Shown: in pieces, positions 4,728-48,519 of the stretch
How positions within the stretch are numbered: position 1 is the stretch's first letter
Layout of the letters: each line of letters starts with the position of its first letter
Assembly (NCBI GenBank): GCA_051872635.1
Contig: JBJEEA010000009.1
Coordinates: 7,513 to 71,512 of the forward strand
From: Bacilli bacterium
GTDB lineage: Bacteria > Bacillota_I > Bacilli_A > RF39 > UBA660
DNA length: 64,000 bases
Reading direction: 5' to 3'
Notes under the pieces: generated by a model
Told to the model about the DNA's origin: nothing
Seen by the model: the letters and a program-made list of their open reading frames with translations, nothing else
Databases searched by the model: none
Program-made: the position numbers and the translations under genes

Positions 4728-4955
4728 TCACTCTTGTGGTACAGTATGATAAATATTTCTATAAACAACTCTTTCTCTAGGAGTCTCTACAACTGGAGAA
4801 GTAACTCCCCCCATTATAGGCCCTCCCATCATTGGTACACCAACATTATTATAATTCATATTAGTATTATCATTAACATTTTGATTAGTATTAGTTATAT
4901 TAATATCAATATCACCATCATACATACTTTGGTTAAAACCATCACTATAATTCAT
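4728..4955 (-). CDS. Hypothetical small N/G-rich protein (75 aa).
   Basis: ORF carries low-complexity N-rich and GG-rich segments. An overlapping plus-strand ORF also exists, so the coding strand is uncertain. Confidence 0.3.
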   Translation of the reverse strand: MNYSDGFNQSMYDGDIDINITNTNQNVNDNTNMNYNNVGVPMMGGPIMGGVTSPVVETPRERVVYRNIYHTVPQE

Positions 4956-5034
4956 AAATTATCCTCCTATCTACAATTATAATATGTGATTATCAAACAT
5001 GTAGATAGTAAAGAAGTCTAATTTTAAAATAAAA

Positions 5035-6843: not shown

Positions 6844-6918
6844 GCAGATGTGGTTCAACGATTAGAATTCGGCCTTGCCAAGGCTGAGACGGGGGTTTGA
6901 CTCCCCTCATCTGCTCCA
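6844..6918 (+). tRNA. tRNA-like gene of 75 nt with a cloverleaf fold. Anticodon loop TTGCCAA gives anticodon GCC (Gly-type), 3' CCA is encoded. The D-loop and T-loop (TTTGACT) are non-canonical. It serves as the prophage attachment target.
   Basis: Acceptor stem GCAGATG/CATCTGC, D-stem GTTC/GAAT, anticodon stem CGGCC/GGCTG, T-stem GGGGG/CCCCT, discriminator T, then CCA. Its last 17 nt are duplicated at the distal prophage end. Confidence 0.5.
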
Positions 6919-6919
6919 T
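6902..6919. repeat. attL core, TCCCCTCATCTGCTCCAT.
   Basis: 18-bp exact direct repeat of 43765..43782. It overlaps the tRNA 3' end. Confidence 0.8.
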
Positions 6920-6969: not shown

Positions 6970-6990
6970 TTAGGTACATTTTAGGTACAT
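6970..6990. repeat. Tandem TTAGGTACAT TTAGGTACAT. Putative integrase arm-type binding sites (P' arm).
   Basis: The same tandem motif, TTAGGTACAC x2, appears at 43639..43659 immediately after the integrase gene. Confidence 0.55.
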
Positions 6991-16186: not shown

Positions 16187-16602
16187 GAATTAACATCCCC
16201 ATATCCGGAAAACTCAATAGTAAACTCATTATATATAATATTGTCTGTGTTATTATCTTTTGGAATAGTGTCTACTGTTGGATTAGGTTTCTTAGCATAA
16301 AACTCTCTAGTAACATAAGTATTTAAATATTTTTCAAAATAATAAATATTTATTTTTACAAGTCTTAATAATTTTAATAGTGGATATAATTCAGCCTGAG
16401 TAAGTTTTTTCTTTATTGGAAGTGTTGCAGCAGGTACTTCAGCACACCTAACACGACTTAAATACCCATTTAATTTTCCTCTTTCAGCACTTGCCTCTAA
16501 ATCGTTTAAAGAAGGAGCATAAGTCCCTTTTTCAAGCCATTCCCATGGAATTTCAAAATAATCTGTACTATCTTTAGGATTTATTATTTTAATTTTATTC
16601 AT
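16183..16602 (-). CDS. Tail component (possible distal tail protein).
   Basis: Sits between the tape measure protein and the large tail protein. Confidence 0.4.
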   Translation of the reverse strand: MNKIKIINPKDSTDYFEIPWEWLEKGTYAPSLNDLEASAERGKLNGYLSRVRCAEVPAATLPIKKKLTQAELYPLLKLLRLVKINIYYFEKYLNTYVTREFYAKKPNPTVDTIPKDNNTDNIIYNEFTIEFSGYGDVNS

Positions 16603-39322: not shown

Positions 39323-39556
39323 TTATTTATTTGTGTGTTTAACAGTTCCAGTGTTAGACACATTTTTTATTTGATTGTAAATGTCATAAGATACATAAAG
39401 AGACAATATAAAAGTTATAAATCCAAATAAGGTCCAACTTGTTAGTTTACCGGATATAATTGGATAAACCAACAATATATACAAGTCATAGATTACAATT
39501 CCTACACATATTACAAAGATTACTAATTTAAATACATTTTTCCAATTTAATTTCAC
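39323..39556 (-). CDS. Small membrane protein (two transmembrane helices). Possible superinfection-exclusion function.
   Basis: Two hydrophobic helices, 77 aa. Confidence 0.35.
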   Translation of the reverse strand: MKLNWKNVFKLVIFVICVGIVIYDLYILLVYPIISGKLTSWTLFGFITFILSLYVSYDIYNQIKNVSNTGTVKHTNK

Positions 39557-39557
39557 A

Positions 39558-39839
39558 TCACATCATACCCTTTCTCATCTTATTCGCTTCTCTTCTAATT
39601 AAAGATACATCTATATTTAGTCTTTCAACAACTTTTTTTGTTGGTACTAATATAGGTCTAGTCTTAAAATAAAACTCCCCTGTCTTGTCCATTTCATCTG
39701 TAAGGTTTTTCCTAAAATTATTAACAGCATTCTTACCAGTTGGTATAATTACCATTAAATCTTCTGTGGATAACCAGGGTTTATTTAATACCTTTTCTTG
39801 TTCTGTATAATCAGATACAGGTCTTTTTTTTCTTTTCAT
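39558..39839 (-). CDS. Putative excisionase/DNA-binding protein (Tn916 Xis-like HTH).
   Basis: WLSTEDLMVIIPTGKNAVNNFRKNL...GEFYFKTRPILVPTKKVVERL has a pattern similar to Xis-type winged HTH proteins. Confidence 0.3.
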   Translation of the reverse strand: MKRKKRPVSDYTEQEKVLNKPWLSTEDLMVIIPTGKNAVNNFRKNLTDEMDKTGEFYFKTRPILVPTKKVVERLNIDVSLIRREANKMRKGMM

Positions 39840-39879
39840 TTTTTCTCCTATCGTGATAGGCTATTGCAGTAGCCTTTTA

Positions 39880-40113
39880 TTATTCATTTTTCAAATCTTC
39901 GAATACGCTTTTAGCGTTATTTGGCGGTAAAAAAATAATATCATTATAATTCATACCTGTAGAAATTAATATATTATTGATTATAGGAACATCAGGAAAT
40001 GTTTTAAAATTTTCATAATTCTCTAATGTATACACGCTGATCCCATACTTTTCTGCCGTTTCTTCCTTTGTCCAGCCTTTATTAATTCTTATCGCTTTTA
40101 AGGTCATTTTCAT
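39880..40113 (-). CDS. Cro-like HTH early regulator.
   Basis: XRE-type HTH (WTKEETAEKYGISVYTLENYE). Divergent from the cI-like gene, with a shared operator. Confidence 0.6.
   Translation of the reverse strand: MKMTLKAIRINKGWTKEETAEKYGISVYTLENYENFKTFPDVPIINNILISTGMNYNDIIFLPPNNAKSVFEDLKNE
39904..39920. promoter_or_regulatory. Operator copy 1: TACGCTTTTAGCGTTAT (dyad ACGC-N5-GCGT).
   Basis: 17-bp exact repeat of 40145..40161. Confidence 0.45.
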
Positions 40114-40144
40114 ATTATCACCTCCAACCTTAATTACATTTTAC

Positions 40145-40161
40145 TACGCTTTTAGCGTTAT
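40145..40161. promoter_or_regulatory. Operator copy 2, inside the early-promoter spacer.
   Basis: On the minus strand: TTGACA, then a 17-nt spacer containing ACGCTAAAAGCGT, then TAAAAT. Confidence 0.5.
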
Positions 40162-40207
40162 GTCAATACTTTTTTACGCAAAAAACATATTTTTTTATAT
40201 TTTTTGT

Positions 40208-40238
40208 TGAAAAAAATACGCCTATAGTGTATAATATA
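40208..40238 (+). promoter_or_regulatory. Promoter of the cI-like repressor gene.
   Basis: TTGAAA, 17 nt, TATAAT, then a GAGGTGA RBS before the ATG at 40255. Confidence 0.45.
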
Positions 40239-40254
40239 CATGTGAGGTGATAAT

Positions 40255-40611
40255 ATGAGCGATTTAGGAAATAAAGAAATTTTTGCAAATAATTTAAAAT
40301 ATTACCTAAAATTATACGATATAGACAGAAATAAAGTTTGTGATAGCTTATCTATTCCCTACTCAACATTCGCCGATTGGATAAATGCAAAAAAATACCC
40401 TAGAATTGACAAGATAGAAATATTGGCAAATTACTTTGGAATTGAAAAGTCGGATTTAATCGAAGACAAAAATAAAAATATTCAAAATACAAGACAAGTT
40501 TTATTTGACAAAACTAAAGACTTATTGTCTGATGATGATTGGGCTACTATTGAGTTTATAATGAATAAAACAATTGCAAATTATGAAAAAAATAAAAATA
40601 ATATGGAATAA
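40255..40611 (+). CDS. XRE-family (cI/ImmR-like) phage repressor.
   Basis: N-terminal HTH_3 (FANNLKYYLKLYDIDRNKVCDSLSIPYSTFADWINAKKYP). Followed by a metallopeptidase gene, as in ImmR-ImmA modules. Confidence 0.75.
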   Translation: MSDLGNKEIFANNLKYYLKLYDIDRNKVCDSLSIPYSTFADWINAKKYPRIDKIEILANYFGIEKSDLIEDKNKNIQNTRQVLFDKTKDLLSDDDWATIEFIMNKTIANYEKNKNNME

Positions 40612-40643
40612 GTGCGCTAGTATAGGTACTTAATAAAGGAGTA

Positions 40644-40979
40644 TTGAGCATTATGAATATATTAAATTTATTATCTGGGGAAATTACGCAAAAAGAACTG
40701 TTAAATTATTATAATGCAACTATTATATATGAAGAATTACCAGTGCAAATAAATGGCTTAGTGTTTGACTATGATGATGTAAACTTCATTATAATAAACA
40801 AAAACTTATCTTATTACAAAAGAAAAAAAACAATTCTTCATGAATTGGCTCATATTGAATTAAATCAGTTAAATCAGATTGATAGAGATTTATTCTCATT
40901 TAAAATTGATAATTATGAAGATGCTGCTGATGTATATATTAAATTTTTAATTGAAAATGTGGTGAAATCAAATGAATGA
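40644..40979 (+). CDS. ImmA/IrrE-family zinc metallopeptidase (anti-repressor protease).
   Basis: HELAHIEL matches the HExxH motif. The small protein lies directly after the XRE repressor. Confidence 0.65.
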   Translation: MSIMNILNLLSGEITQKELLNYYNATIIYEELPVQINGLVFDYDDVNFIIINKNLSYYKRKKTILHELAHIELNQLNQIDRDLFSFKIDNYEDAADVYIKFLIENVVKSNE

Positions 40980-42132
40980 ATCAATATATAAAATCAAGTA
41001 CTTGTATTATAAAAAAATAGGAAATGTAAAATTAGCTGAGCATATGTTTAATTTTACTGATAGCGAAAAAAAATCAGAACAAGAATTTTTAAATTGGTTG
41101 CGTAGTAAATGTTCCGGAAGAATGGATTATTTCGATATAGCAATCAAATTATGTGGCAAGCCCATTACTAAACACAGGAGATTTTTGTTAGCAAAAATAT
41201 ATGCTTGGCATTCTGTTGTATATGCAGATAAAGCAATTTATTACATAAATCTTTACTTAAATAATGGACTATATGGTGGTGCATATAAACATATTAATTA
41301 TGGTAATGATACAATATCTAGCCGAAAAAACATTCATTTATCTGACATGTACATGTACTTAGGACAATCATATGAAAGATTAAAAGATTATGATAATGCT
41401 ATAAAATATTATAAAGAAGAAATAAAATATAGACCAGAAGTTCCAGTTGGATATGTGCACATTGCTAATGTCTATAAAAATAAAAAAGAATTACAACATG
41501 CAATCGACATTTTAGAACAAGCTAAAAATTCTAAATATTATGTAATTACAGAAGTTAAAGATTATTTTGGGAATTCTTATAACCCACCATTATATAATAA
41601 ATCATTTGTTGATGTAATTGATAGATATTTAAATGAATATAAAGATTTGAAATTAGGAATTAAAAAACATGAATTTTCTGGTTTTGACTATGTTGAAGGT
41701 ATAAATAATAAATATATACAATTACGATATAATGAATTAAAAAATGAATATAAAACAATATTTGATATTCATAGACAACATTTGAGAAAAAATGATGAAC
41801 TTTCTTTTAGAATAGAAAATGAAACAAATAGTACTTTATTTGAAGAATATACAGAAAATTGTTTGCAAGATATTGATGTATATAAATCCCTTGAAATTTT
41901 TTATTTCAAACTAAATAATTTTGGACTAAACAATCATTATAAATATCAGGATAGTTATTCCAATGGTTATCTATTACCAAAAAAATGTTGTATCTTTCTA
42001 GAAAAATATAAAAGATATGATGATGCTATATTAATTTGCAAAAAAGCAATTGAAAATGGTATCATCGATGATGGAACTAAGGGTAAAATGTATAAAAGAT
42101 TAGAAAAGTTAGAAAAGTTAGCAAAAAAATAA
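40972..42132 (+). CDS. TPR-repeat protein of 386 aa. Rap/RRNPP-like candidate signal receptor.
   Basis: The start overlaps the immA-like stop (ATGAATGA). Central TPR-like repeats include YERLKDYDNAIKYYKEEIK and VGYVHIANVYKNKKELQHAIDILEQA. Its size matches Rap/AimR-class regulators. Confidence 0.55.
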   Translation: MNESIYKIKYLYYKKIGNVKLAEHMFNFTDSEKKSEQEFLNWLRSKCSGRMDYFDIAIKLCGKPITKHRRFLLAKIYAWHSVVYADKAIYYINLYLNNGLYGGAYKHINYGNDTISSRKNIHLSDMYMYLGQSYERLKDYDNAIKYYKEEIKYRPEVPVGYVHIANVYKNKKELQHAIDILEQAKNSKYYVITEVKDYFGNSYNPPLYNKSFVDVIDRYLNEYKDLKLGIKKHEFSGFDYVEGINNKYIQLRYNELKNEYKTIFDIHRQHLRKNDELSFRIENETNSTLFEEYTENCLQDIDVYKSLEIFYFKLNNFGLNNHYKYQDSYSNGYLLPKKCCIFLEKYKRYDDAILICKKAIENGIIDDGTKGKMYKRLEKLEKLAKK

Positions 42133-42167
42133 AAAAAGACTAGCCTGCTGCAACAGAACTAGTCAGA

Positions 42168-42224
42168 ATGAAAAACAAATTTAGCGACAAAACTAAGATC
42201 AATTTTTATGAGGAGGAAATCTAA
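42168..42224 (+). CDS. Possible 18-aa peptide ORF (MKNKFSDKTKINFYEEEI).
   Basis: ATG..TAA ORF whose stop overlaps the next ATG (TAATG). Weak RBS. Hydrophilic, no signal peptide. Confidence 0.15.
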   Translation: MKNKFSDKTKINFYEEEI

Positions 42225-42346
42225 TGAAAGAAATAGATGAGAAAACAAAAGAGATTTTAGCGGATAGATTTATAAAAGCAATTATAGAAGTATTAGAAAT
42301 GAAATATGATGTTGAAATAAAATATACATTAAAAGATAAGAATTAA
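42224..42346 (+). CDS. Small protein of 40 aa (MKEIDEKTKEILADRFIKAIIEVLEMKYDVEIKYTLKDKN).
   Basis: Strong GAGGAGGA RBS 5 nt upstream. Lies between the TPR protein and integrase genes. Confidence 0.35.
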   Translation: MKEIDEKTKEILADRFIKAIIEVLEMKYDVEIKYTLKDKN

Positions 42347-42491
42347 AAAAAGAGCCAGTGCTGGAACACCGACTCAAACACTATAAAAGTGTATGTAAAA
42401 TTAAATTGTTCTTGCGACAGACAATTGGTTTTTTACATACTCTAATTATAGCAAATGCAAAGAAAAAAAGCAATAAGGAGAGTGATAATTT

Positions 42492-43625
42492 ATGCCAGTT
42501 TATAAGACAAAAACTGAAAAAACAAAAGATAATAAAATATGGTATTTTAAATGCAATTATAAAGATGTTTATGGAAACATAAAGCAAAAGAAAAGTAAAA
42601 AATATGCAACAAGAGACGAAGCGCTGAAAGAAGAAGCAAAATTTAAACTAAAACAAGATGAAGTTTCAGTTTTAAATACTACTATGTATGATTTATATAA
42701 TGCCTATTTCTTTTTAGACGACAGTATAATAAATAGAGAGTCAACATTATATACTAAAGAATATAGAGTTAGAAAATATATACTACCATTCTTTATAAAT
42801 AATAAAAATGGTAAGTACTCTGATTTATCCACAGTTAATGTTGATAAAATTAAAAAATGGAAAATATGGCTAAATGAAAAAAAATTGTCATTACAAACAA
42901 AGAAATCATTATTTAATACTTTCTCTTCTTTAATGAGTTATGCCGTAGAAAAGTATAGTTTAGAATATAATCCTTTAAAACTTGTTGAAAATTTTAGAGA
43001 AAAGAACGATAAGGTAGTTGAAGAAGAAAAAGTCAGATTTATGACTAATGAAGAATATAGAATATTTATTGATGAAGTAGATGATGATTTTAAAGTAGTG
43101 TTTCACTTCTTATATGAAATTGGATGCCGTAAAGGTGAAATGACATCTTTAAAATGGAAAAATGTTGATTTAAAAAACGAAAGAGTAAAATTAAATACAA
43201 CATTTTCTCGCAAAAGAGATGGTAGCCTTACTATTGCAAATACAAAAAATGGCAAAAACAAATATGTTGATATGTCTCCAAAGTTAGTTGAAGAACTAAC
43301 CGAATTATACAACAAGATGAAAAAACTGGATGGTTTCTCTGATGAATGGTTTGTGTTTGGTGGGATAAAATATCTTTCCTACACTACTCTAGGAAGAAAA
43401 AAAGATGAAGCATTTGAAAGATTAAAAGAAAAAGGTATAAATATAACTAATATAACAATACATGAATTTAGGCATAGTTCTGCTAGTTATATGATTAGTA
43501 ATAATATACCAATAGAAGTAATAGCATACAGATTAGGAGATACACCTGAAACTATCAGAAGAACTTATGCTCACCTATTTCCTGATGCTCAAAAAGATGT
43601 AAAAGGATTATTTAATAATTTATAA
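42492..43625 (+). CDS. int: Tyrosine integrase (phage integrase family).
   Basis: C-terminal catalytic motifs: R in GCRKGE, HEFRHSSASYM (H-x-x-R), ETIRRTYAHL (Y). Confidence 0.9.
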   Translation: MPVYKTKTEKTKDNKIWYFKCNYKDVYGNIKQKKSKKYATRDEALKEEAKFKLKQDEVSVLNTTMYDLYNAYFFLDDSIINRESTLYTKEYRVRKYILPFFINNKNGKYSDLSTVNVDKIKKWKIWLNEKKLSLQTKKSLFNTFSSLMSYAVEKYSLEYNPLKLVENFREKNDKVVEEEKVRFMTNEEYRIFIDEVDDDFKVVFHFLYEIGCRKGEMTSLKWKNVDLKNERVKLNTTFSRKRDGSLTIANTKNGKNKYVDMSPKLVEELTELYNKMKKLDGFSDEWFVFGGIKYLSYTTLGRKKDEAFERLKEKGINITNITIHEFRHSSASYMISNNIPIEVIAYRLGDTPETIRRTYAHLFPDAQKDVKGLFNNL

Positions 43626-43638
43626 AAATTAATAAATT

Positions 43639-43659
43639 TTAGGTACACTTTAGGTACAC
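43639..43659. repeat. Tandem TTAGGTACAC TTAGGTACAC. Putative integrase arm-type sites (P arm).
   Basis: Same tandem motif as 6970..6990, immediately after the int stop. Confidence 0.55.
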
Positions 43660-43764
43660 ATTTTTTAAAATAACATAAAAAAACACATAAAATTAACTAT
43701 ATTAAAATTAAACAAACACTTATTTTATAAGGCTTTTAGCAAATGATAAAATTAACTAATATTT

Positions 43765-43782
43765 TCCCCTCATCTGCTCCAT
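43765..43782. repeat. attR core, TCCCCTCATCTGCTCCAT (partial tRNA 3'-end copy).
   Basis: Exact 18-bp direct repeat of 6902..6919. Confidence 0.8.
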
Positions 43783-43794
43783 TGAGGTTAATAC

Positions 43795-43830
43795 TCGCAC
43801 ACTTATATAGTGATTGCGAGTTTTTTATTT
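43795..43830 (+). terminator. Original host terminator of the tRNA gene, displaced by phage integration.
   Basis: CTCGCA...TGCGAG hairpin followed by TTTTTTATTTT, about 12 nt after the attR tRNA-end copy. Confidence 0.55.
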
Positions 43831-43832
43831 TA

Positions 43833-43869
43833 AAACAAGTCCATATTATTTGATATTATGGACTTGTTT
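43833..43869. terminator. Perfect 13-bp stem hairpin (AAACAAGTCCATA / TATGGACTTGTTT). Likely terminator of the convergent 990-aa gene.
   Basis: Perfect inverted repeat lying between attR and the 990-aa ORF stop at 43938. Confidence 0.45.
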
Positions 43870-43937
43870 CATTATTTAAAGGAAGTATGAATTATTTATA
43901 AAAACAACCATAAAAACTTTGACTTTTCCTTTTGAAA

Positions 43938-46910
43938 TTAAAAACAAATCAAAGATTTTGTGATGTCGTATGCTTCGTAAAGCATTATAAATGCTGGATT
44001 TACTATGGTGTCATCAAAGTGTTTTTTTAATGTTTTCCCAATTTTTAATGTGACTGAATTTATTTCACTATTGACCCTTTCATCTTGTGAATTGTTAAAT
44101 GCTTCTTTATCTCCATTTTTATAACTTATAACATACCAGTCATCATTACAATAAACTTCTTTTAAATCCCCAACATCTATTGCTTTATATAATGCTAATG
44201 TGTTTTCTTTTTCTGATTTTATATATCTTAACGCATTAACTTTTTTGTTAATAAGTTTTATATAATCTTCATCATAAGAATCAGCTGCTAAATAATACAT
44301 AATCTCTTTTCTATCATCTTGGTAATTAAAATAGCATTGACCTAAATTAAATGTACCATTTCCTCTAATTAAATATTGGACATTTTTAGAATCAGAATAT
44401 TCTACCGCCTCAATCGGTTGTGGTAAAATGTCAACAAATTTTCTATTACTTCCTAATTTACTTCCAAAATCTTTATCTTTAAGATTACAAATTTTTGCAA
44501 TTAAACAAGGATATTTTTCTATACCTTTTATTTCTTTATCAAAATTAGTAAACCCAATTGTTACATTTTTAATGCAACTTTCTATTCCTTCAAATTCAAA
44601 TGAAATTCTTATTAATTCATCAATAGCTTGTAAATATACATCAAAGAAATCAACACAATCTATACTTTTTGAAATTTCAATATTATCAAAGCACAGTAAA
44701 TCTCCATTTCTCCAAACCCAACTATGTGCTAAAATATCATTATCTTTTTTTATAACAAATATTCTCCCATTAAAACTAGTTACAGCATGTTTTAAACATG
44801 AATATCCATTACCTAACACAGTAAAACAGCAATCAGTCTTATTACCAACACATAAAGCTTCCATATCATCTAATCTTAATATCTCATAAGAATATTTATC
44901 TTTTATTCCTGCAATTCTTGGTATTGTAGAAGATATTCTGTTCAAAATCTGATCATGTAATACTAAAGTTTCATTCACAATACTATTATCACAACCAATA
45001 AATTTAAATATTCCCTCTAAACGATAATATTTAGGTGGTAGTGTTATTTCATCACTTTTTAAAAATTCTATTATTGTCTTTAATGATTTATCCTTATTAT
45101 TCATCTCAATCATTTTCCATTCACTAAATATTCTAGGAAAATATTTATATAAATCACTATCTTTATTAGATAACATCCCTTTAATTCTAGAATAATTTTT
45201 ATCATTAAATAATAAATTAATTATCTTAGTATTTAGTATTGGACTTCCTTGTTCATCTAACATTACATTTTTAACATCAACATTACCTACTAAATGTTCT
45301 AATACAGGTAATGTATCATCAATTTCTAATAAAACTCTAGCGTTATTAAATCCAACCATTAACATTAATTTTAAAATTAACTGTTTATAACTTCTAATAG
45401 ACCATTTACCTTCTTCAAACTTTTTACATAACTGTTTATGTTGTTTAACATTATAATTTTCTAATTGTTCTACAGTAAAATCTTCTACTTTAAAGTCTAT
45501 ACTTCCTAATCTATTTAAGATTGTTATTTCTTCAATACTAGATAACTCATATAAAACAGTAATTGACTTACCCATAACAATTTTATAAAATAATTTTTCT
45601 ATTTCTTTAAAATTATTATTCTCAATATTGTTAACAATATTTTGATTTCTTAAGAACAATATAAAATTTGATAAGTGTTGTTTATAATTTTCATCACTTT
45701 TTGAAATAATATTACTTTTTAACATTTCTCTAAGTTCACTTAAATTCTTAAAATATTTTTCTGAAAAAACAGAAGTCATTTCATCAATTTCCTCTAATAT
45801 ACCATTAGTTTTAATATTACTTCTATATTTTGTTTCAACATATCTCAATGCTGATATAGATTCTTTATGCCAATAAGAAATATAAAAGTTTGTGTCAAAA
45901 AGCAATTCAATATTATCAATTTCAAAAGTATCCAATATTTCTTTAAATTTATCATTAAATACTCCAGATCTAGAACATGCTTTGATCCAATCATTTAAAG
46001 TTAATGAATTAAACACTTCTTTATCATCACTATATAAATTAATAATAATCTTTGGTCTGATACTATTATTAATTTTCTTGATATCATGGCCTTGTATTAT
46101 ATTTTCAAAAAAATTAGATATTAAAATCTCTTGCTTCGTTTCATCAGTTTCGTTCAAATACTCTTTTAAATCATATTCAGAAATATTACTAAATGCAGTA
46201 TTTAATTTATCATAATGATTACTTACAAATTGTCTATATACATCTACATTTTCAATATACCTTATAAATGTTAATAGTTCTCCTGGTTTAAATTCATTAA
46301 TTTTATCTATATATTTTTCTAATAAAAAATCCATAAATTCTTCATTATAAATTATTTGTAATTCAAAGATGTTATTTATATCATGCATATTAGCATTATC
46401 ATAACAACAGCTATTATGAAAATATAATCCATTGATAAATTCTCTATTTTCTACTTGAACTAATTCAGTATAAAATTCGGTATAAAAAGAATAATACTCT
46501 TCATGTGTAAATCCATGAAATAAATTCTCAGGATTTTGACTTATAACTTTTTTAAATATATCAGTATCAATATTTTTTAATTCTTTTAACACATTAAAAG
46601 AAAGAAAATAGGATAAAGATCTAGGGGCTATCATTGTGTATAAAAATATATCATTGTCATGTTCTTTAATGTATTTTATATTATCCTTCATAAATGTTAT
46701 TTGCTTATCTTCTGGTAATTTGCTAATAATATAATAAATAGAAAGAGGATTCATATCATTAATATTTTTATTACCAGTTTTAATATATTCATCACACTCT
46801 TTAAGCGCTTTTTCTTCATTTTGTTTACTTGCATTTAATGAAAGTGGTATAGATTTTTTCCCAAGTCCTTCTAACAACACTTGAATTTGTTCATCAGTTA
46901 ATTCTGGCAT
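43938..46910 (-). CDS. Large hypothetical protein (990 aa), operon partner of the ankyrin-AAA+ protein.
   Basis: Long uninterrupted ORF with a GGGGGA RBS. Cys-containing segments (SCCYDNANMHD, CVGNKTDCCFTVLGNGYSCLKH). No domain recognised. Confidence 0.8.
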   Translation of the reverse strand: MPELTDEQIQVLLEGLGKKSIPLSLNASKQNEEKALKECDEYIKTGNKNINDMNPLSIYYIISKLPEDKQITFMKDNIKYIKEHDNDIFLYTMIAPRSLSYFLSFNVLKELKNIDTDIFKKVISQNPENLFHGFTHEEYYSFYTEFYTELVQVENREFINGLYFHNSCCYDNANMHDINNIFELQIIYNEEFMDFLLEKYIDKINEFKPGELLTFIRYIENVDVYRQFVSNHYDKLNTAFSNISEYDLKEYLNETDETKQEILISNFFENIIQGHDIKKINNSIRPKIIINLYSDDKEVFNSLTLNDWIKACSRSGVFNDKFKEILDTFEIDNIELLFDTNFYISYWHKESISALRYVETKYRSNIKTNGILEEIDEMTSVFSEKYFKNLSELREMLKSNIISKSDENYKQHLSNFILFLRNQNIVNNIENNNFKEIEKLFYKIVMGKSITVLYELSSIEEITILNRLGSIDFKVEDFTVEQLENYNVKQHKQLCKKFEEGKWSIRSYKQLILKLMLMVGFNNARVLLEIDDTLPVLEHLVGNVDVKNVMLDEQGSPILNTKIINLLFNDKNYSRIKGMLSNKDSDLYKYFPRIFSEWKMIEMNNKDKSLKTIIEFLKSDEITLPPKYYRLEGIFKFIGCDNSIVNETLVLHDQILNRISSTIPRIAGIKDKYSYEILRLDDMEALCVGNKTDCCFTVLGNGYSCLKHAVTSFNGRIFVIKKDNDILAHSWVWRNGDLLCFDNIEISKSIDCVDFFDVYLQAIDELIRISFEFEGIESCIKNVTIGFTNFDKEIKGIEKYPCLIAKICNLKDKDFGSKLGSNRKFVDILPQPIEAVEYSDSKNVQYLIRGNGTFNLGQCYFNYQDDRKEIMYYLAADSYDEDYIKLINKKVNALRYIKSEKENTLALYKAIDVGDLKEVYCNDDWYVISYKNGDKEAFNNSQDERVNSEINSVTLKIGKTLKKHFDDTIVNPAFIMLYEAYDITKSLICF

Positions 46911-46932: not shown

Positions 46933-48519
46933 TTATTTTATAAATTTATTAAAATCTATTTTTAAAACTCTTTGTACAGGTTTAGATATACTTGCATCTA
47001 AATTTCTTAATCTTGCTATTGCTTGTTCTCTTGTAGATTCATAAATTCTATCACAGTATTCAAAACTTTCAACAAAATGTTCTGCTGTTATAAACTCACT
47101 ATCATAAACTTTAGCAAATGCAAACACTTTATCAACAATAGATATTGATAAGTCAGGATTATTAACCATATCGTTATAAACTCTATGATTTTTTTCAGTA
47201 GCACTTACAATAATATCAACAACTTGATTTCTTATATTTTCATTTTCAAATTGTATTCCATTTTTTAAATAGTAATCACCAATTACTTTATCAATTATTT
47301 GACATAAAATATCTTCAGTAGGCTCTTTAACTATAATTTTTTCAAATCTTCTTTTTAATGTATCACCACTAAAAAATTCATTATACTCTTTTTCAGTTGT
47401 TGTTCCAATTACCTTTAAATTTGATCTATCTATATAGTGTTTTAACATAGATGCCATATCATTATCCTTACTTTTAGATGAACCAATACCATATATTGTA
47501 TGAATCTCATCAATGAAAACTATTACATCTAATTTTTCACATAACTTCATTAATTTAGTCATGTTATCTTCAAACATTCCAACATATTGACAACCTGCAA
47601 CAACATCACTAGGATTAACCTCTAAAATTATTTTCCCTTGTAAGAAACTAGGTACTTGTCCTATTTTAATTCTATATGCTAGTTCATCCACTAATGCAGT
47701 TTTTCCTACACCTGACTCTCCAACAATTAAAGGTCTCTTTTTATCTTGTGCCAAAGTAATCATAAGATTTTTTAATTCTTTTTCTCTTCCAATAGTTGGA
47801 GCAACTATATAATTTTTCTTATTTAATACTTTTCCATATTTTTCAAGTTCTGAAATATCATTATCAGATAATGTTTGTGTCACAGTAGCAAAGGGAACTT
47901 CTTGTTTTACTGGGGTATTACTAGCAACAACTGTTTTTATTTCTTTAGATTGATTATCCTTGTATAATTTTGAATATCTTTCTTGAAATTTCTTTTTAAA
48001 ACCTTCCATTTGCTCTCTAGAATATTGCTTTTGAAAAATCATAGCTTCAAGTAAATTTCTTGCATCTTGATCTTCTAATGAAGAATCAAATCCATTAGCA
48101 CACAATAAATCATAAATTCTTTCAACTTCACCTAAGTAATCATCACTATATATTGCAGTGTGCATAATAGTATCTTTATCACTATCAACATGATTAACAT
48201 TTAATTTGTATTTTAATGACTCAGTAATAATATTTAAAATAAACTCTTCACTATATCCAGCATATAAAGCGGTTTGAATAAAATTATAATTATAATCAGC
48301 TTCTAAATTCGGACTTAAACCAATTTGCAATAATGATTTAATAGCTAGAAAACACTTTGCTTCATCATACTTATTATCTACTAAAATATGTAATAAAGAT
48401 TGATTATCGTCATCAGTATAATCTAAATTTCCAAATGCACTCTTAATTTTTTTTACATTAGAATACATGTCGTCTGTCATTTCTGACAATAAAGTCCTTA
48501 TATTATTTTTATTTAACAT
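46933..48519 (-). CDS. Ankyrin-repeat protein fused to a single ClpA/ClpB-NBD1-like AAA+ ATPase domain.
   Basis: N-terminal ankyrin-like repeats (SLLHILVDN..., DKDTIMHTAIY..., DARNLLEAM...). Then PTIGREKELKNLMITLAQDKKRPLIVGESGVGKTALVDELAYRI, Walker B VIVFIDEIH, and Arg finger KRRFEKI. Nearly colinear with the ClpB D1 domain. Confidence 0.8.
   Translation of the reverse strand: MLNKNNIRTLLSEMTDDMYSNVKKIKSAFGNLDYTDDDNQSLLHILVDNKYDEAKCFLAIKSLLQIGLSPNLEADYNYNFIQTALYAGYSEEFILNIITESLKYKLNVNHVDSDKDTIMHTAIYSDDYLGEVERIYDLLCANGFDSSLEDQDARNLLEAMIFQKQYSREQMEGFKKKFQERYSKLYKDNQSKEIKTVVASNTPVKQEVPFATVTQTLSDNDISELEKYGKVLNKKNYIVAPTIGREKELKNLMITLAQDKKRPLIVGESGVGKTALVDELAYRIKIGQVPSFLQGKIILEVNPSDVVAGCQYVGMFEDNMTKLMKLCEKLDVIVFIDEIHTIYGIGSSKSKDNDMASMLKHYIDRSNLKVIGTTTEKEYNEFFSGDTLKRRFEKIIVKEPTEDILCQIIDKVIGDYYLKNGIQFENENIRNQVVDIIVSATEKNHRVYNDMVNNPDLSISIVDKVFAFAKVYDSEFITAEHFVESFEYCDRIYESTREQAIARLRNLDASISKPVQRVLKIDFNKFIK

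Follow-up and report, generated by a model that had tools for sequence, protein, structure and literature searches.

The immunity region of a ∼37-kb prophage in a 64,000-nucleotide stretch of DNA (the window) from a metagenome-assembled genome probably combines an ImmR/ImmA-type lysogeny switch with a tetratricopeptide repeat (TPR)-like gene that is carried as exchangeable cargo and expressed in the lysogen, as judged from sequence comparison. The region (Table 1) encodes an XRE repressor, an ImmA-like metalloprotease, and a 386-aa TPR-like protein, followed by two tiny open reading frames (ORFs) and an integrase. The first-pass annotation of this DNA proposed that these genes form a Rap/arbitrium-like decision system wired through ImmA in a “Clostridium-type phage.” The sequence features that it listed are all present where it placed them, but the proposed system did not stand up with respect to homology and fold, a peptide gene, or a link to ImmA, and the NCBI source label is “Bacilli bacterium” (assembly GCA_051872635.1, contig JBJEEA010000009.1), not Clostridium. 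We instead read the TPR-like gene as encoding a lysogen-expressed accessory protein, because the slot beside immA holds many unrelated passenger genes in related phages.

The evidence for such a slot comes from a pattern scan of IMG/VR, which yielded 67 loci of this ImmA clade, nearly all with proteases that are 54 to 80% identical. Downstream genes were counted in the 62 of these that extend at least 700 nt 3′ of immA. A gene matching the N domain of the TPR-like protein (∼aa 1 to 230) follows immA in only 1 of the 62, and one further locus (L058) has a gene for the C domain alone (the domain spans ∼aa 230 to 386) before immA. Elsewhere in the census, immA is followed directly by a recombinase or integrase gene or by unrelated genes, which encode DUF4428 proteins, a TM2/Zn-ribbon RNase_T exonuclease, PemK-like, Bro-N, KilA-N, and SHOCT proteins, lipoproteins, and membrane proteins. 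A number of these cargo genes run into the immA stop codon, with overlaps of 3 to 19 nt, and in this resemble the TPR gene. Between immR and immA, too, members of the same cargo families occur; thus, immA has a cargo slot on either side, and the arrangement in L058 is nothing special.

The closest view of the exchange is provided by loci L156 to L158, in which the repressor is identical to that of the window at 117 of 118 residues and DNA identity is ∼89% from cro through the operators and immR into immA. The gene that follows immA in these loci encodes either a TM2/FtsK_gamma/Mrr_cat protein or a multipass membrane protein, neither of which matches the hidden Markov models (HMMs) of the TPR family. 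Judging from this gene content, the TPR gene is dispensable for phages of the same immunity type.

Relatives of the TPR gene are found in a wide range of neighborhoods. The order XRE-ImmA-TPR is shared by the window, L001 (a Logan contig and the closest relative), L016, L033/L088, and L036, whereas a gene for the N domain lies between XRE and M78 genes in L032 and one for the C domain between XRE and ImmA genes in L058. Other family members follow an XRE gene with no protease (L015), follow S24-type self-cleaving CI repressors (L029/L030, L133, and L134), end an XRE-M78-Ltp lipoprotein-TPR series (L130, L140, and L141), or lie after DUF4236 proteins and before a serine recombinase (L131 and similar loci). 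Outside phages, relatives adjoin DUF4429/SHOCT proteins (L003 to L008) or precede a DUF4236-FtsK protein in a mobilizable element (L012 to L014), and a lone low-GC family member resides in an Oscillospiraceae chromosome (L023). In all, L003 to L014 and L023 hold family members that are solitary or are located in islands unrelated to phages. Based on these contexts, the family is typical of mobile-element repressor operons and is not tied to ImmA. The five arrangements in which a TPR gene follows ImmA show that homologs do occur beside ImmA-type proteases, which leaves room for an optional modulating role. TPR-family genes and the slots flanking immA were also repeatedly observed beside DUF4236, DUF4429/DUF4428, SHOCT, TM2, and Zn-ribbon proteins (L003 to L008, L012 to L014, L131, L139, L066, and L092); judged by these neighborhoods, such proteins are a recurring, uncharacterized set of small-protein domains of Firmicute mobile elements.

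Based on its domains and gene order, the XRE/M78 pair is a standard, already known type of ImmR/ImmA lysogeny switch. The first-pass annotation had recognized an XRE repressor and an HExxH ImmA-type protease, and this identification is borne out by Pfam and PHROG matches, an intact metal site, a recurring repressor tail, and a divergent cro gene. The two genes are on the plus strand, 41 nt apart, with XRE directly 5′ of the M78 (COG2856) protease. The protease carries the motif HELAH, and H63, E64, H67, and E89 are invariant in a five-member ImmA alignment (A6). NCBI names the protein as a metallo-endopeptidase of the ImmA/IrrE family and deposits it as 108 aa, the form that begins at the likely start codon, ATG 40653, rather than at the alternative TTG 40644. 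We also considered read-through of the immA TGA under genetic code 4 and rejected it, as it would add only 4 residues and the deposited form has 108 aa.

The spacer between cro and immR contains two promoter-like sites that face apart, at 40207 to 40235 (plus strand) and 40166 to 40138 (minus strand), each with 11 of 12 matches. An operator-like palindrome of 16 to 17 nt, TACGCTTTTAGCGTTAT, lies at 40145 to 40161 and is present in three copies in all, including a degenerate one at 40215 to 40230 and a third at 39904 to 39920 (repeat families D1/D3). These TACGC-N5-GCGT palindromes are candidate repressor operators between divergent promoters. The repressor itself combines an N-terminal helix-turn-helix (HTH) domain with a C-terminal tail, VLFDKTKDLLSDDDWATIEFIMNK, which fits the form (V/I)LF(D/S)K.KD.L(S/T)DDD...FI(M/I)NK, is the presumed target of ImmA, and resembles the cleavage region of ImmR. 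A tail of the form LF(D/S/N)K.K(D/N).L(S/T)(E/D).D...(F/T)I(I/M)(E/N)K ends the XRE protein 5′ of immA in most loci of the ImmA clade, and the motif is weak in the repressor of L015, which has no ImmA. Comparison of L001 (5189 to 5551) with the window (40255 to 40611) revealed a mosaic breakpoint within immR: the HTH (specificity) half has been exchanged, and the tail is retained together with immA (93% identical) and the 386-aa gene (95% identical), a pattern that fits a tail matched to its protease. When the module was compared with phages by blastn, only the HTH region of the repressor was matched.

By analogy with ICEBs1, where ImmA cleaves ImmR (PMC6540685), ImmA is inferred to cleave the repressor here; ImmR/ImmA-like lysogeny systems have also been reported for Clostridium prophages (PMC11318856). 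A single rightward promoter would drive immR, immA, the cargo gene, and, further on, int. Following the ICEBs1 paradigm, the repressor would bind the TACGC-N5-GCGT palindromes and keep the divergent cro/lytic operon off; an inducing signal would then lead ImmA to cut the repressor in its conserved C-terminal tail (at VLF/DK...), resulting in prophage induction.

We identified a structured RNA element directly 5′ of the immA ribosome-binding site, which in the window forms the hairpin AAGUGC-GCUAGUAUAG-GUACUU. The 22-nt element (AAGUAUGCUAGUAYAGRUACUU) follows the stop codon of whichever gene precedes immA; in 52 of 71 ImmA-clade loci, it is located 5′ of the immA ribosome-binding site, at a distance of 10 to 45 nt. 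Twelve loci have a second copy, which directly follows immA or, in the case of L001 and L016, the TPR gene. It consists of a 6-bp stem and a nearly invariant 10-nt loop (GCUAGUAYAG). Across 17 distinct variants, every stem cell pairs, and 3 of the 6 pairs show double compensatory changes, with G.U at several pairs. Neither the pairing score nor the covariation score was equaled in any of 500 shuffles, and pairing fell to 35 to 52% in slid registers. Rfam gave no match within 39500 to 44000. A sigma-70 promoter at this position was considered and rejected, as inspection of the sequences revealed no acceptable −35 box. These features suggest an RNA hairpin on the sense strand that is linked to the expression of immA, and the element is a candidate control or processing element for expression of the protease.

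The placement of the TPR gene raises the alternative that its product is an optional subunit of the switch, which would bind ImmA or the repressor tail and inhibit or activate the protease on an intracellular cue. Such a protein would be a functional analogue of RapI acting on ImmA, yet it would be no RRNPP protein and would involve no peptide. RapI, which activates ImmA in ICEBs1, provides the precedent (PMC6540685), and we found no other ImmA-linked TPR protein described in the literature. Consistent with this alternative, the 8-nt start/stop overlap with immA is retained in L001, and the gene recurs right after ImmA (window, L001, L016, L033, and L036) or between XRE and M78 (L032 and L058). 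In addition, the repressor tail, immA, and the TPR gene were co-inherited between the window and L001 while the HTH half was swapped; the hairpins enclose immA and the TPR gene together in L001 and L016; and ImmA is a bare 108-aa protease domain. On the other side, among the 62 phage loci of this ImmA clade, at least 60 have no TPR gene, unrelated genes fill the slot in phages with the same repressor, and unrelated cargo genes are coupled to immA by codon overlap just as closely. The family also occurs after self-cleaving S24 repressors and far from any repressor, and in L016 identity to the window falls to ∼33% for the TPR protein where ImmA holds at 61%.

Several of these points weigh against exchangeable cargo. 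TPR-family genes recur in immunity operons in many arrangements (window, L001, L016, L033, L036, L058, and L032), in each case closely coupled to the gene before them, through overlaps or gaps of 0 to 12 nt; the hairpins in L001 and L016 bracket immA and the TPR gene as one unit; and the protease has no sensor domain of its own. Moreover, the IMG/VR census rests on our own HMMs and ORF calls, and no PADLOC defense-system model matches the 386-aa protein or five of its relatives, so that any protective role is conjectural. Because of the recurrent, tightly coupled placement in immunity operons and the bare 108-aa ImmA, we retain a modulator role for the TPR protein as an unlikely alternative, and we continue to favor cargo.

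The 386-aa protein itself belongs to a sparse family. Its ATG lies within ATGAATGA, so the coupling to immA that the first-pass annotation described, within the same operon, is real, with an 8-nt overlap of the immA stop that is kept in L001. The protein is less typical of TPR proteins than its “Rap-sized TPR protein” description suggests: Pfam detects only about two canonical motifs (TPR_2, 8.9e-9, and TPR_8) at aa 125 to 185, and the remainder is TPR-like in the AlphaFold model only. A word-indexed search found a single close homolog among 5.8 billion proteins, and an exhaustive HMMER search recovered a sparse but real family. This consists of ∼10 full-length members with 30 to 38% identity, ∼65 stand-alone proteins of 220 to 250 aa that match only aa 1 to 230, and a few that match only aa 250 to 385. 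Searches of genome contigs and viral contigs with the single protein or the A3 alignment recovered no relatives, and tblastn against GenBank phages gave nothing significant. A degenerate DNA pattern for [DE]DGTKGKM returned 1 true match among 12 in genome contigs (L023), and a looser pattern for [DE]DGTKGxM returned 1 C-domain fragment among 25 in viral contigs. The C domain was also seen as a stand-alone protein ending in ...YEK..Y.EAI..C..AI..G..DDGT.G....R...L.KK (P0056, P0100, P0142, L058 3463 to 3957, and L111 1304 to 1732); fusions of this module to Zn-ribbons or to membrane helices also occur, as do occasional duplications.

The first-pass annotation had called for a structure prediction of the TPR protein. 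A single-sequence AlphaFold model was poor (pLDDT, 48), and an alignment of 80 sequences was used instead; the resulting model is confident (pLDDT, 96.2; pTM, 0.90), mostly helical, including the N terminus, and contains two short beta hairpins. The best matches of the model are generic TPR superhelices: Foldseek searches of the PDB and of viral predicted structures (BFVD) returned OGT, CTPR, LGN, and Sel1-type superhelices with TM scores of 0.2 to 0.4. A PDB profile search likewise returned only generic or designed TPRs, at aa 122 to 182. Rap, NprR, PlcR, PrgX, and AimR were absent from the best 60 matches of the profile search and from the best 50 Foldseek matches in either the PDB or BFVD. 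Pfam revealed no HTH domain in 80 family members scanned, and the protein has no PHROG match and no specific NCBIfam match. Given the Pfam, PDB, Foldseek, HTH, PHROG, NCBIfam, and PADLOC results, we regard the 386-aa protein as a helical-repeat protein of an uncharacterized family and not as a recognizable RRNPP receptor. The proposed Rap/RRNPP-like identity is thus not supported by any specific similarity in sequence or fold to Rap, NprR, PlcR, PrgX, or AimR.

Neither tiny ORF downstream of the TPR gene qualifies as its partner. The 18-aa ORF, MKNKFSDKTKINFYEEEI, has no ribosome-binding site, begins right after a hairpin, and is no more than expected by chance; in L001, the same DNA yields a 12-aa ORF in its place. 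Window positions 42125 to 42196, which include the hairpin and the first half of the ORF, are 87 to 97% identical to the spacer upstream of the recombinase in L146 to L151, L154, and L156, whereas positions 42185 to 42339 share 76 to 78% DNA identity with the leader and coding region of a 39-aa early gene (P0169). The two segments meet at a shared GACAAAACTAA at 42187 to 42197, an 11-bp microhomology. Because its left and right halves match different sources joined at GACAAAACTAA, the 18-aa ORF is a spurious frame across a recombination junction. The 40-aa ORF, a small early-lytic gene, would have reached its place between the cargo gene and int by recombination, with the 18-aa ORF arising as a by-product.

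Homologs of the 40-aa ORF include P0165 to P0167 and P0169. The last of these is indexed in 51 blocks of the collection searched and lies just after cro, ahead of the replication genes, in 10 of the 10 places listed, including the L001 contig. The 40-aa gene is not found beside the 95%-identical TPR gene of L001, and many phages without any TPR gene carry it in their lytic operon. A comparison of L146 to L155 showed that many related phages have the 39-aa early gene in its usual place after cro, as one of a pair with a 64-aa gene. A tblastn search of GenBank phages with the 40-aa ORF gave nothing significant. Judged by these comparisons, the 40-aa ORF is a genuine but relocated, conserved small early-lytic phage gene and not a partner of the TPR gene. 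Both ORFs are present as first described, the longer one with its GAGGAGG ribosome-binding site, and they differ from that description in their origins, one as a junction artifact and the other as a relocated lytic gene. The search for an immR-immA-TPR-small-ORF arrangement in relatives gave a similarly divided result: the XRE-ImmA-TPR order recurs, but among the other family members examined we found no conserved small ORF beside the TPR gene.

These results bear on a true RRNPP/arbitrium-type quorum system, in which the TPR protein would act as receptor for an unusual, nonsecreted peptide, the product of either the 18-aa or the 40-aa ORF. All that speaks for such a system is how large the TPR protein is, that it has TPR motifs, and that two small ORFs lie next to its gene. 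The first-pass annotation had itself noted the lack of a canonical Phr- or AimP-type peptide, and we agree: there is no exported-peptide gene in the region, and the 40-aa product has no signal peptide. Its further suggestion, that the tiny ORFs encode the cue of a TPR receptor, conflicts with the lack of conservation of the 18-aa ORF and with the absence of linkage between the 40-aa gene and the TPR gene in relatives. With no RRNPP family among the best sequence or fold matches, no Pfam HTH in the TPR protein, and other family members without a conserved adjoining small ORF, a quorum system of this type is already contradicted by comparative data, and we give it next to no credence.

The two hairpins that flank the 40-aa gene are oriented against the lysogeny genes: their folding is more favorable on the minus strand, where each is followed by a U-run, and both therefore look like minus-strand terminators. 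They share with hairpins of L001 (7628 to 7654) and L150 (∼4945 to 4965) a 5′ A-run, a CUGSAA loop, and variable stems. Terminators at this position might keep antisense or late transcription from running through attP. A 10-mer common to both hairpins, TGCTGSAACA, was also found at 16423 and 49037, where it lies inside coding sequence, and was judged to be due to chance.

If the TPR-like protein is cargo, it would most likely act by binding another protein through its helical-repeat surface and would probably benefit the lysogen, conceivably through exclusion of or defense against other phages. An effect on host physiology, such as titration of a host regulator, chaperone, or protease, with no role in the switch or in defense, seems improbable. 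A soluble, all-helical repeat protein without catalytic domain matches would suit such a function, as would relatives that occur as single genes in ordinary chromosomal neighborhoods (L023 and L003), but no host partner is indicated and most of the informative contexts are mobile elements. We also find it quite improbable, although worth stating, that the two-domain TPR-like family is a plug-in input module placed right behind any repressor-inactivation device (ImmA, S24 CI, or plain XRE). By binding the device, its members would render induction responsive to an intracellular cue, a Rap-like logic that would have evolved independently of RRNPP proteins and without a peptide.

The switch resembles those of ICEBs1 and Firmicute ImmR/ImmA-like modules, in which genes for an XRE repressor and an M78 HExxH protease and then int succeed one another on one strand, with a divergent lytic or transfer operon. 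ICEBs1 ImmA has 169 aa, compared with 108 aa here. Unlike ICEBs1, the prophage has no rapI-phrI cassette and instead has a conserved RNA hairpin before immA and interleaved variable cargo genes. As in RapI-PhrI, the analogy drawn by the first-pass annotation, the element that encodes ImmA also encodes a helical-repeat protein. In contrast to that system, however, the TPR protein has no detectable homology or specific fold match to Rap and no Phr-like exported peptide, and its gene belongs to the repressor operon, not to a cassette with its own regulation, and is dispensable in phages with the same repressor. Compared with arbitrium (aimR-aimP-aimX), no AimR-like match was seen among the BFVD or PDB matches listed, and there is no exported peptide gene.

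Parallels are also offered by the morons of lysogeny modules, such as Ltp of phage TP-J34, sie2009, and lambda rexAB. As here, these genes lie between repressor and integrase, are cotranscribed in the lysogen, and are exchanged among related phages. The same slots in relatives hold Ltp-type lipoproteins and nuclease-domain and toxin-like proteins; unlike morons, the TPR protein has no membrane anchor and no known defense domain. Finally, two regulators of cyclic oligonucleotide-based antiphage signaling systems (CBASS) were matched weakly in PADLOC, CapH by the XRE protein (1.4e-4) and CapP by the protease (2.4e-6). In CapH/CapP, too, a protease cleaves an HTH repressor, but the pair in the window controls a prophage lytic operon rather than a CBASS operon, and its protease lacks the larger CapP architecture, matching positions 25 to 107 of a 242-position profile.

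The prophage is integrated in tRNA-Gly and is bounded by an 18-bp exact direct repeat. Nearly all phage genes run leftward from the cro-like gene, and the lysogeny operon runs rightward at the right end of the prophage. Tandem TTAGGTACA repeats occur just within both ends (6970 to 6990 and 43640 to 43665) and are likely arm-type binding sites of the integrase. Outside attR, a 990-aa ORF without a Pfam match (43938 to 46910, minus strand) adjoins a gene for a 528-aa AAA/STAND-type NTPase (46933 to 48519, minus strand; AAA, 6.2e-13; nSTAND1, 4.7e-6). The two may be a defense-type gene pair beside the site of prophage integration.

Table 1. Coordinates of the prophage ends and immunity region in the window and of copies of the 22-nt RNA element in two related loci
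Feature	Position	Strand	Evidence or remark
tRNA-Gly(GCC)	6844–6919	+	ARAGORN; left prophage boundary
attL core, TCCCCTCATCTGCTCCAT	6902–6919	+	3′ end of tRNA-Gly(GCC); 18-bp exact match to 43765–43782
cro-like HTH gene	39880–40113	−	Pfam HTH_19/HTH_3, PHROG repressor-type HTH; heads the leftward lytic operon
Divergent promoter/operator region	40114–40254	.	Promoter scan; repeat families D1/D3
XRE repressor, ImmR-like, 118 aa	40255–40611	+	Pfam HTH_26/HTH_3, PHROG transcriptional regulator
Intercistronic RNA hairpin	40610–40631	+	Conserved, covarying; just 5′ of the immA ribosome-binding site
ImmA-like M78 metalloprotease, 108 aa	40653–40979	+	Peptidase_M78 (E = 6.9e-9), PHROG metallo-protease
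Two-domain TPR-like protein, 386 aa	40972–42132	+	Pfam TPR motifs, AlphaFold model
Minus-strand terminator-like hairpin 1	42138–42164	−	Folding −12.8 kcal/mol, z = −4.3; U-run after stem
18-aa ORF	42169–42225	+	Spans the recombination junction
40-aa small gene (P0169 family)	42224–42346	+	Homologs in related phages; GAGGAGG ribosome-binding site
Minus-strand terminator-like hairpin 2	42352–42375	−	Terminator scan; folding −18.4 kcal/mol, z = −5.3
Tyrosine integrase, 377 aa	42492–43625	+	Phage_integrase 1.3e-18, PHROG_1 integrase 2.1e-52
attR core	43765–43782	+	Right prophage boundary; 18-bp exact copy of 6902–6919
22-nt element copies, L001	5550–5571; 7105–7126
22-nt element copies, L016	7635–7656; 9251–9272

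Had the first-pass annotation been right, the region would have revealed a new way for signals to reach ImmA-type prophage induction without a peptide; what the evidence favors instead is a textbook ImmR/ImmA switch whose neighboring slots are a hot spot for exchangeable passenger genes. The comparison defines an uncharacterized two-domain TPR-like family, found mainly in repressor operons of Firmicute prophages. The slots flanking immA are a good place to mine for lysogen-expressed accessory genes, and the conserved structured RNA before immA may set the amount of protease in the lysogen.

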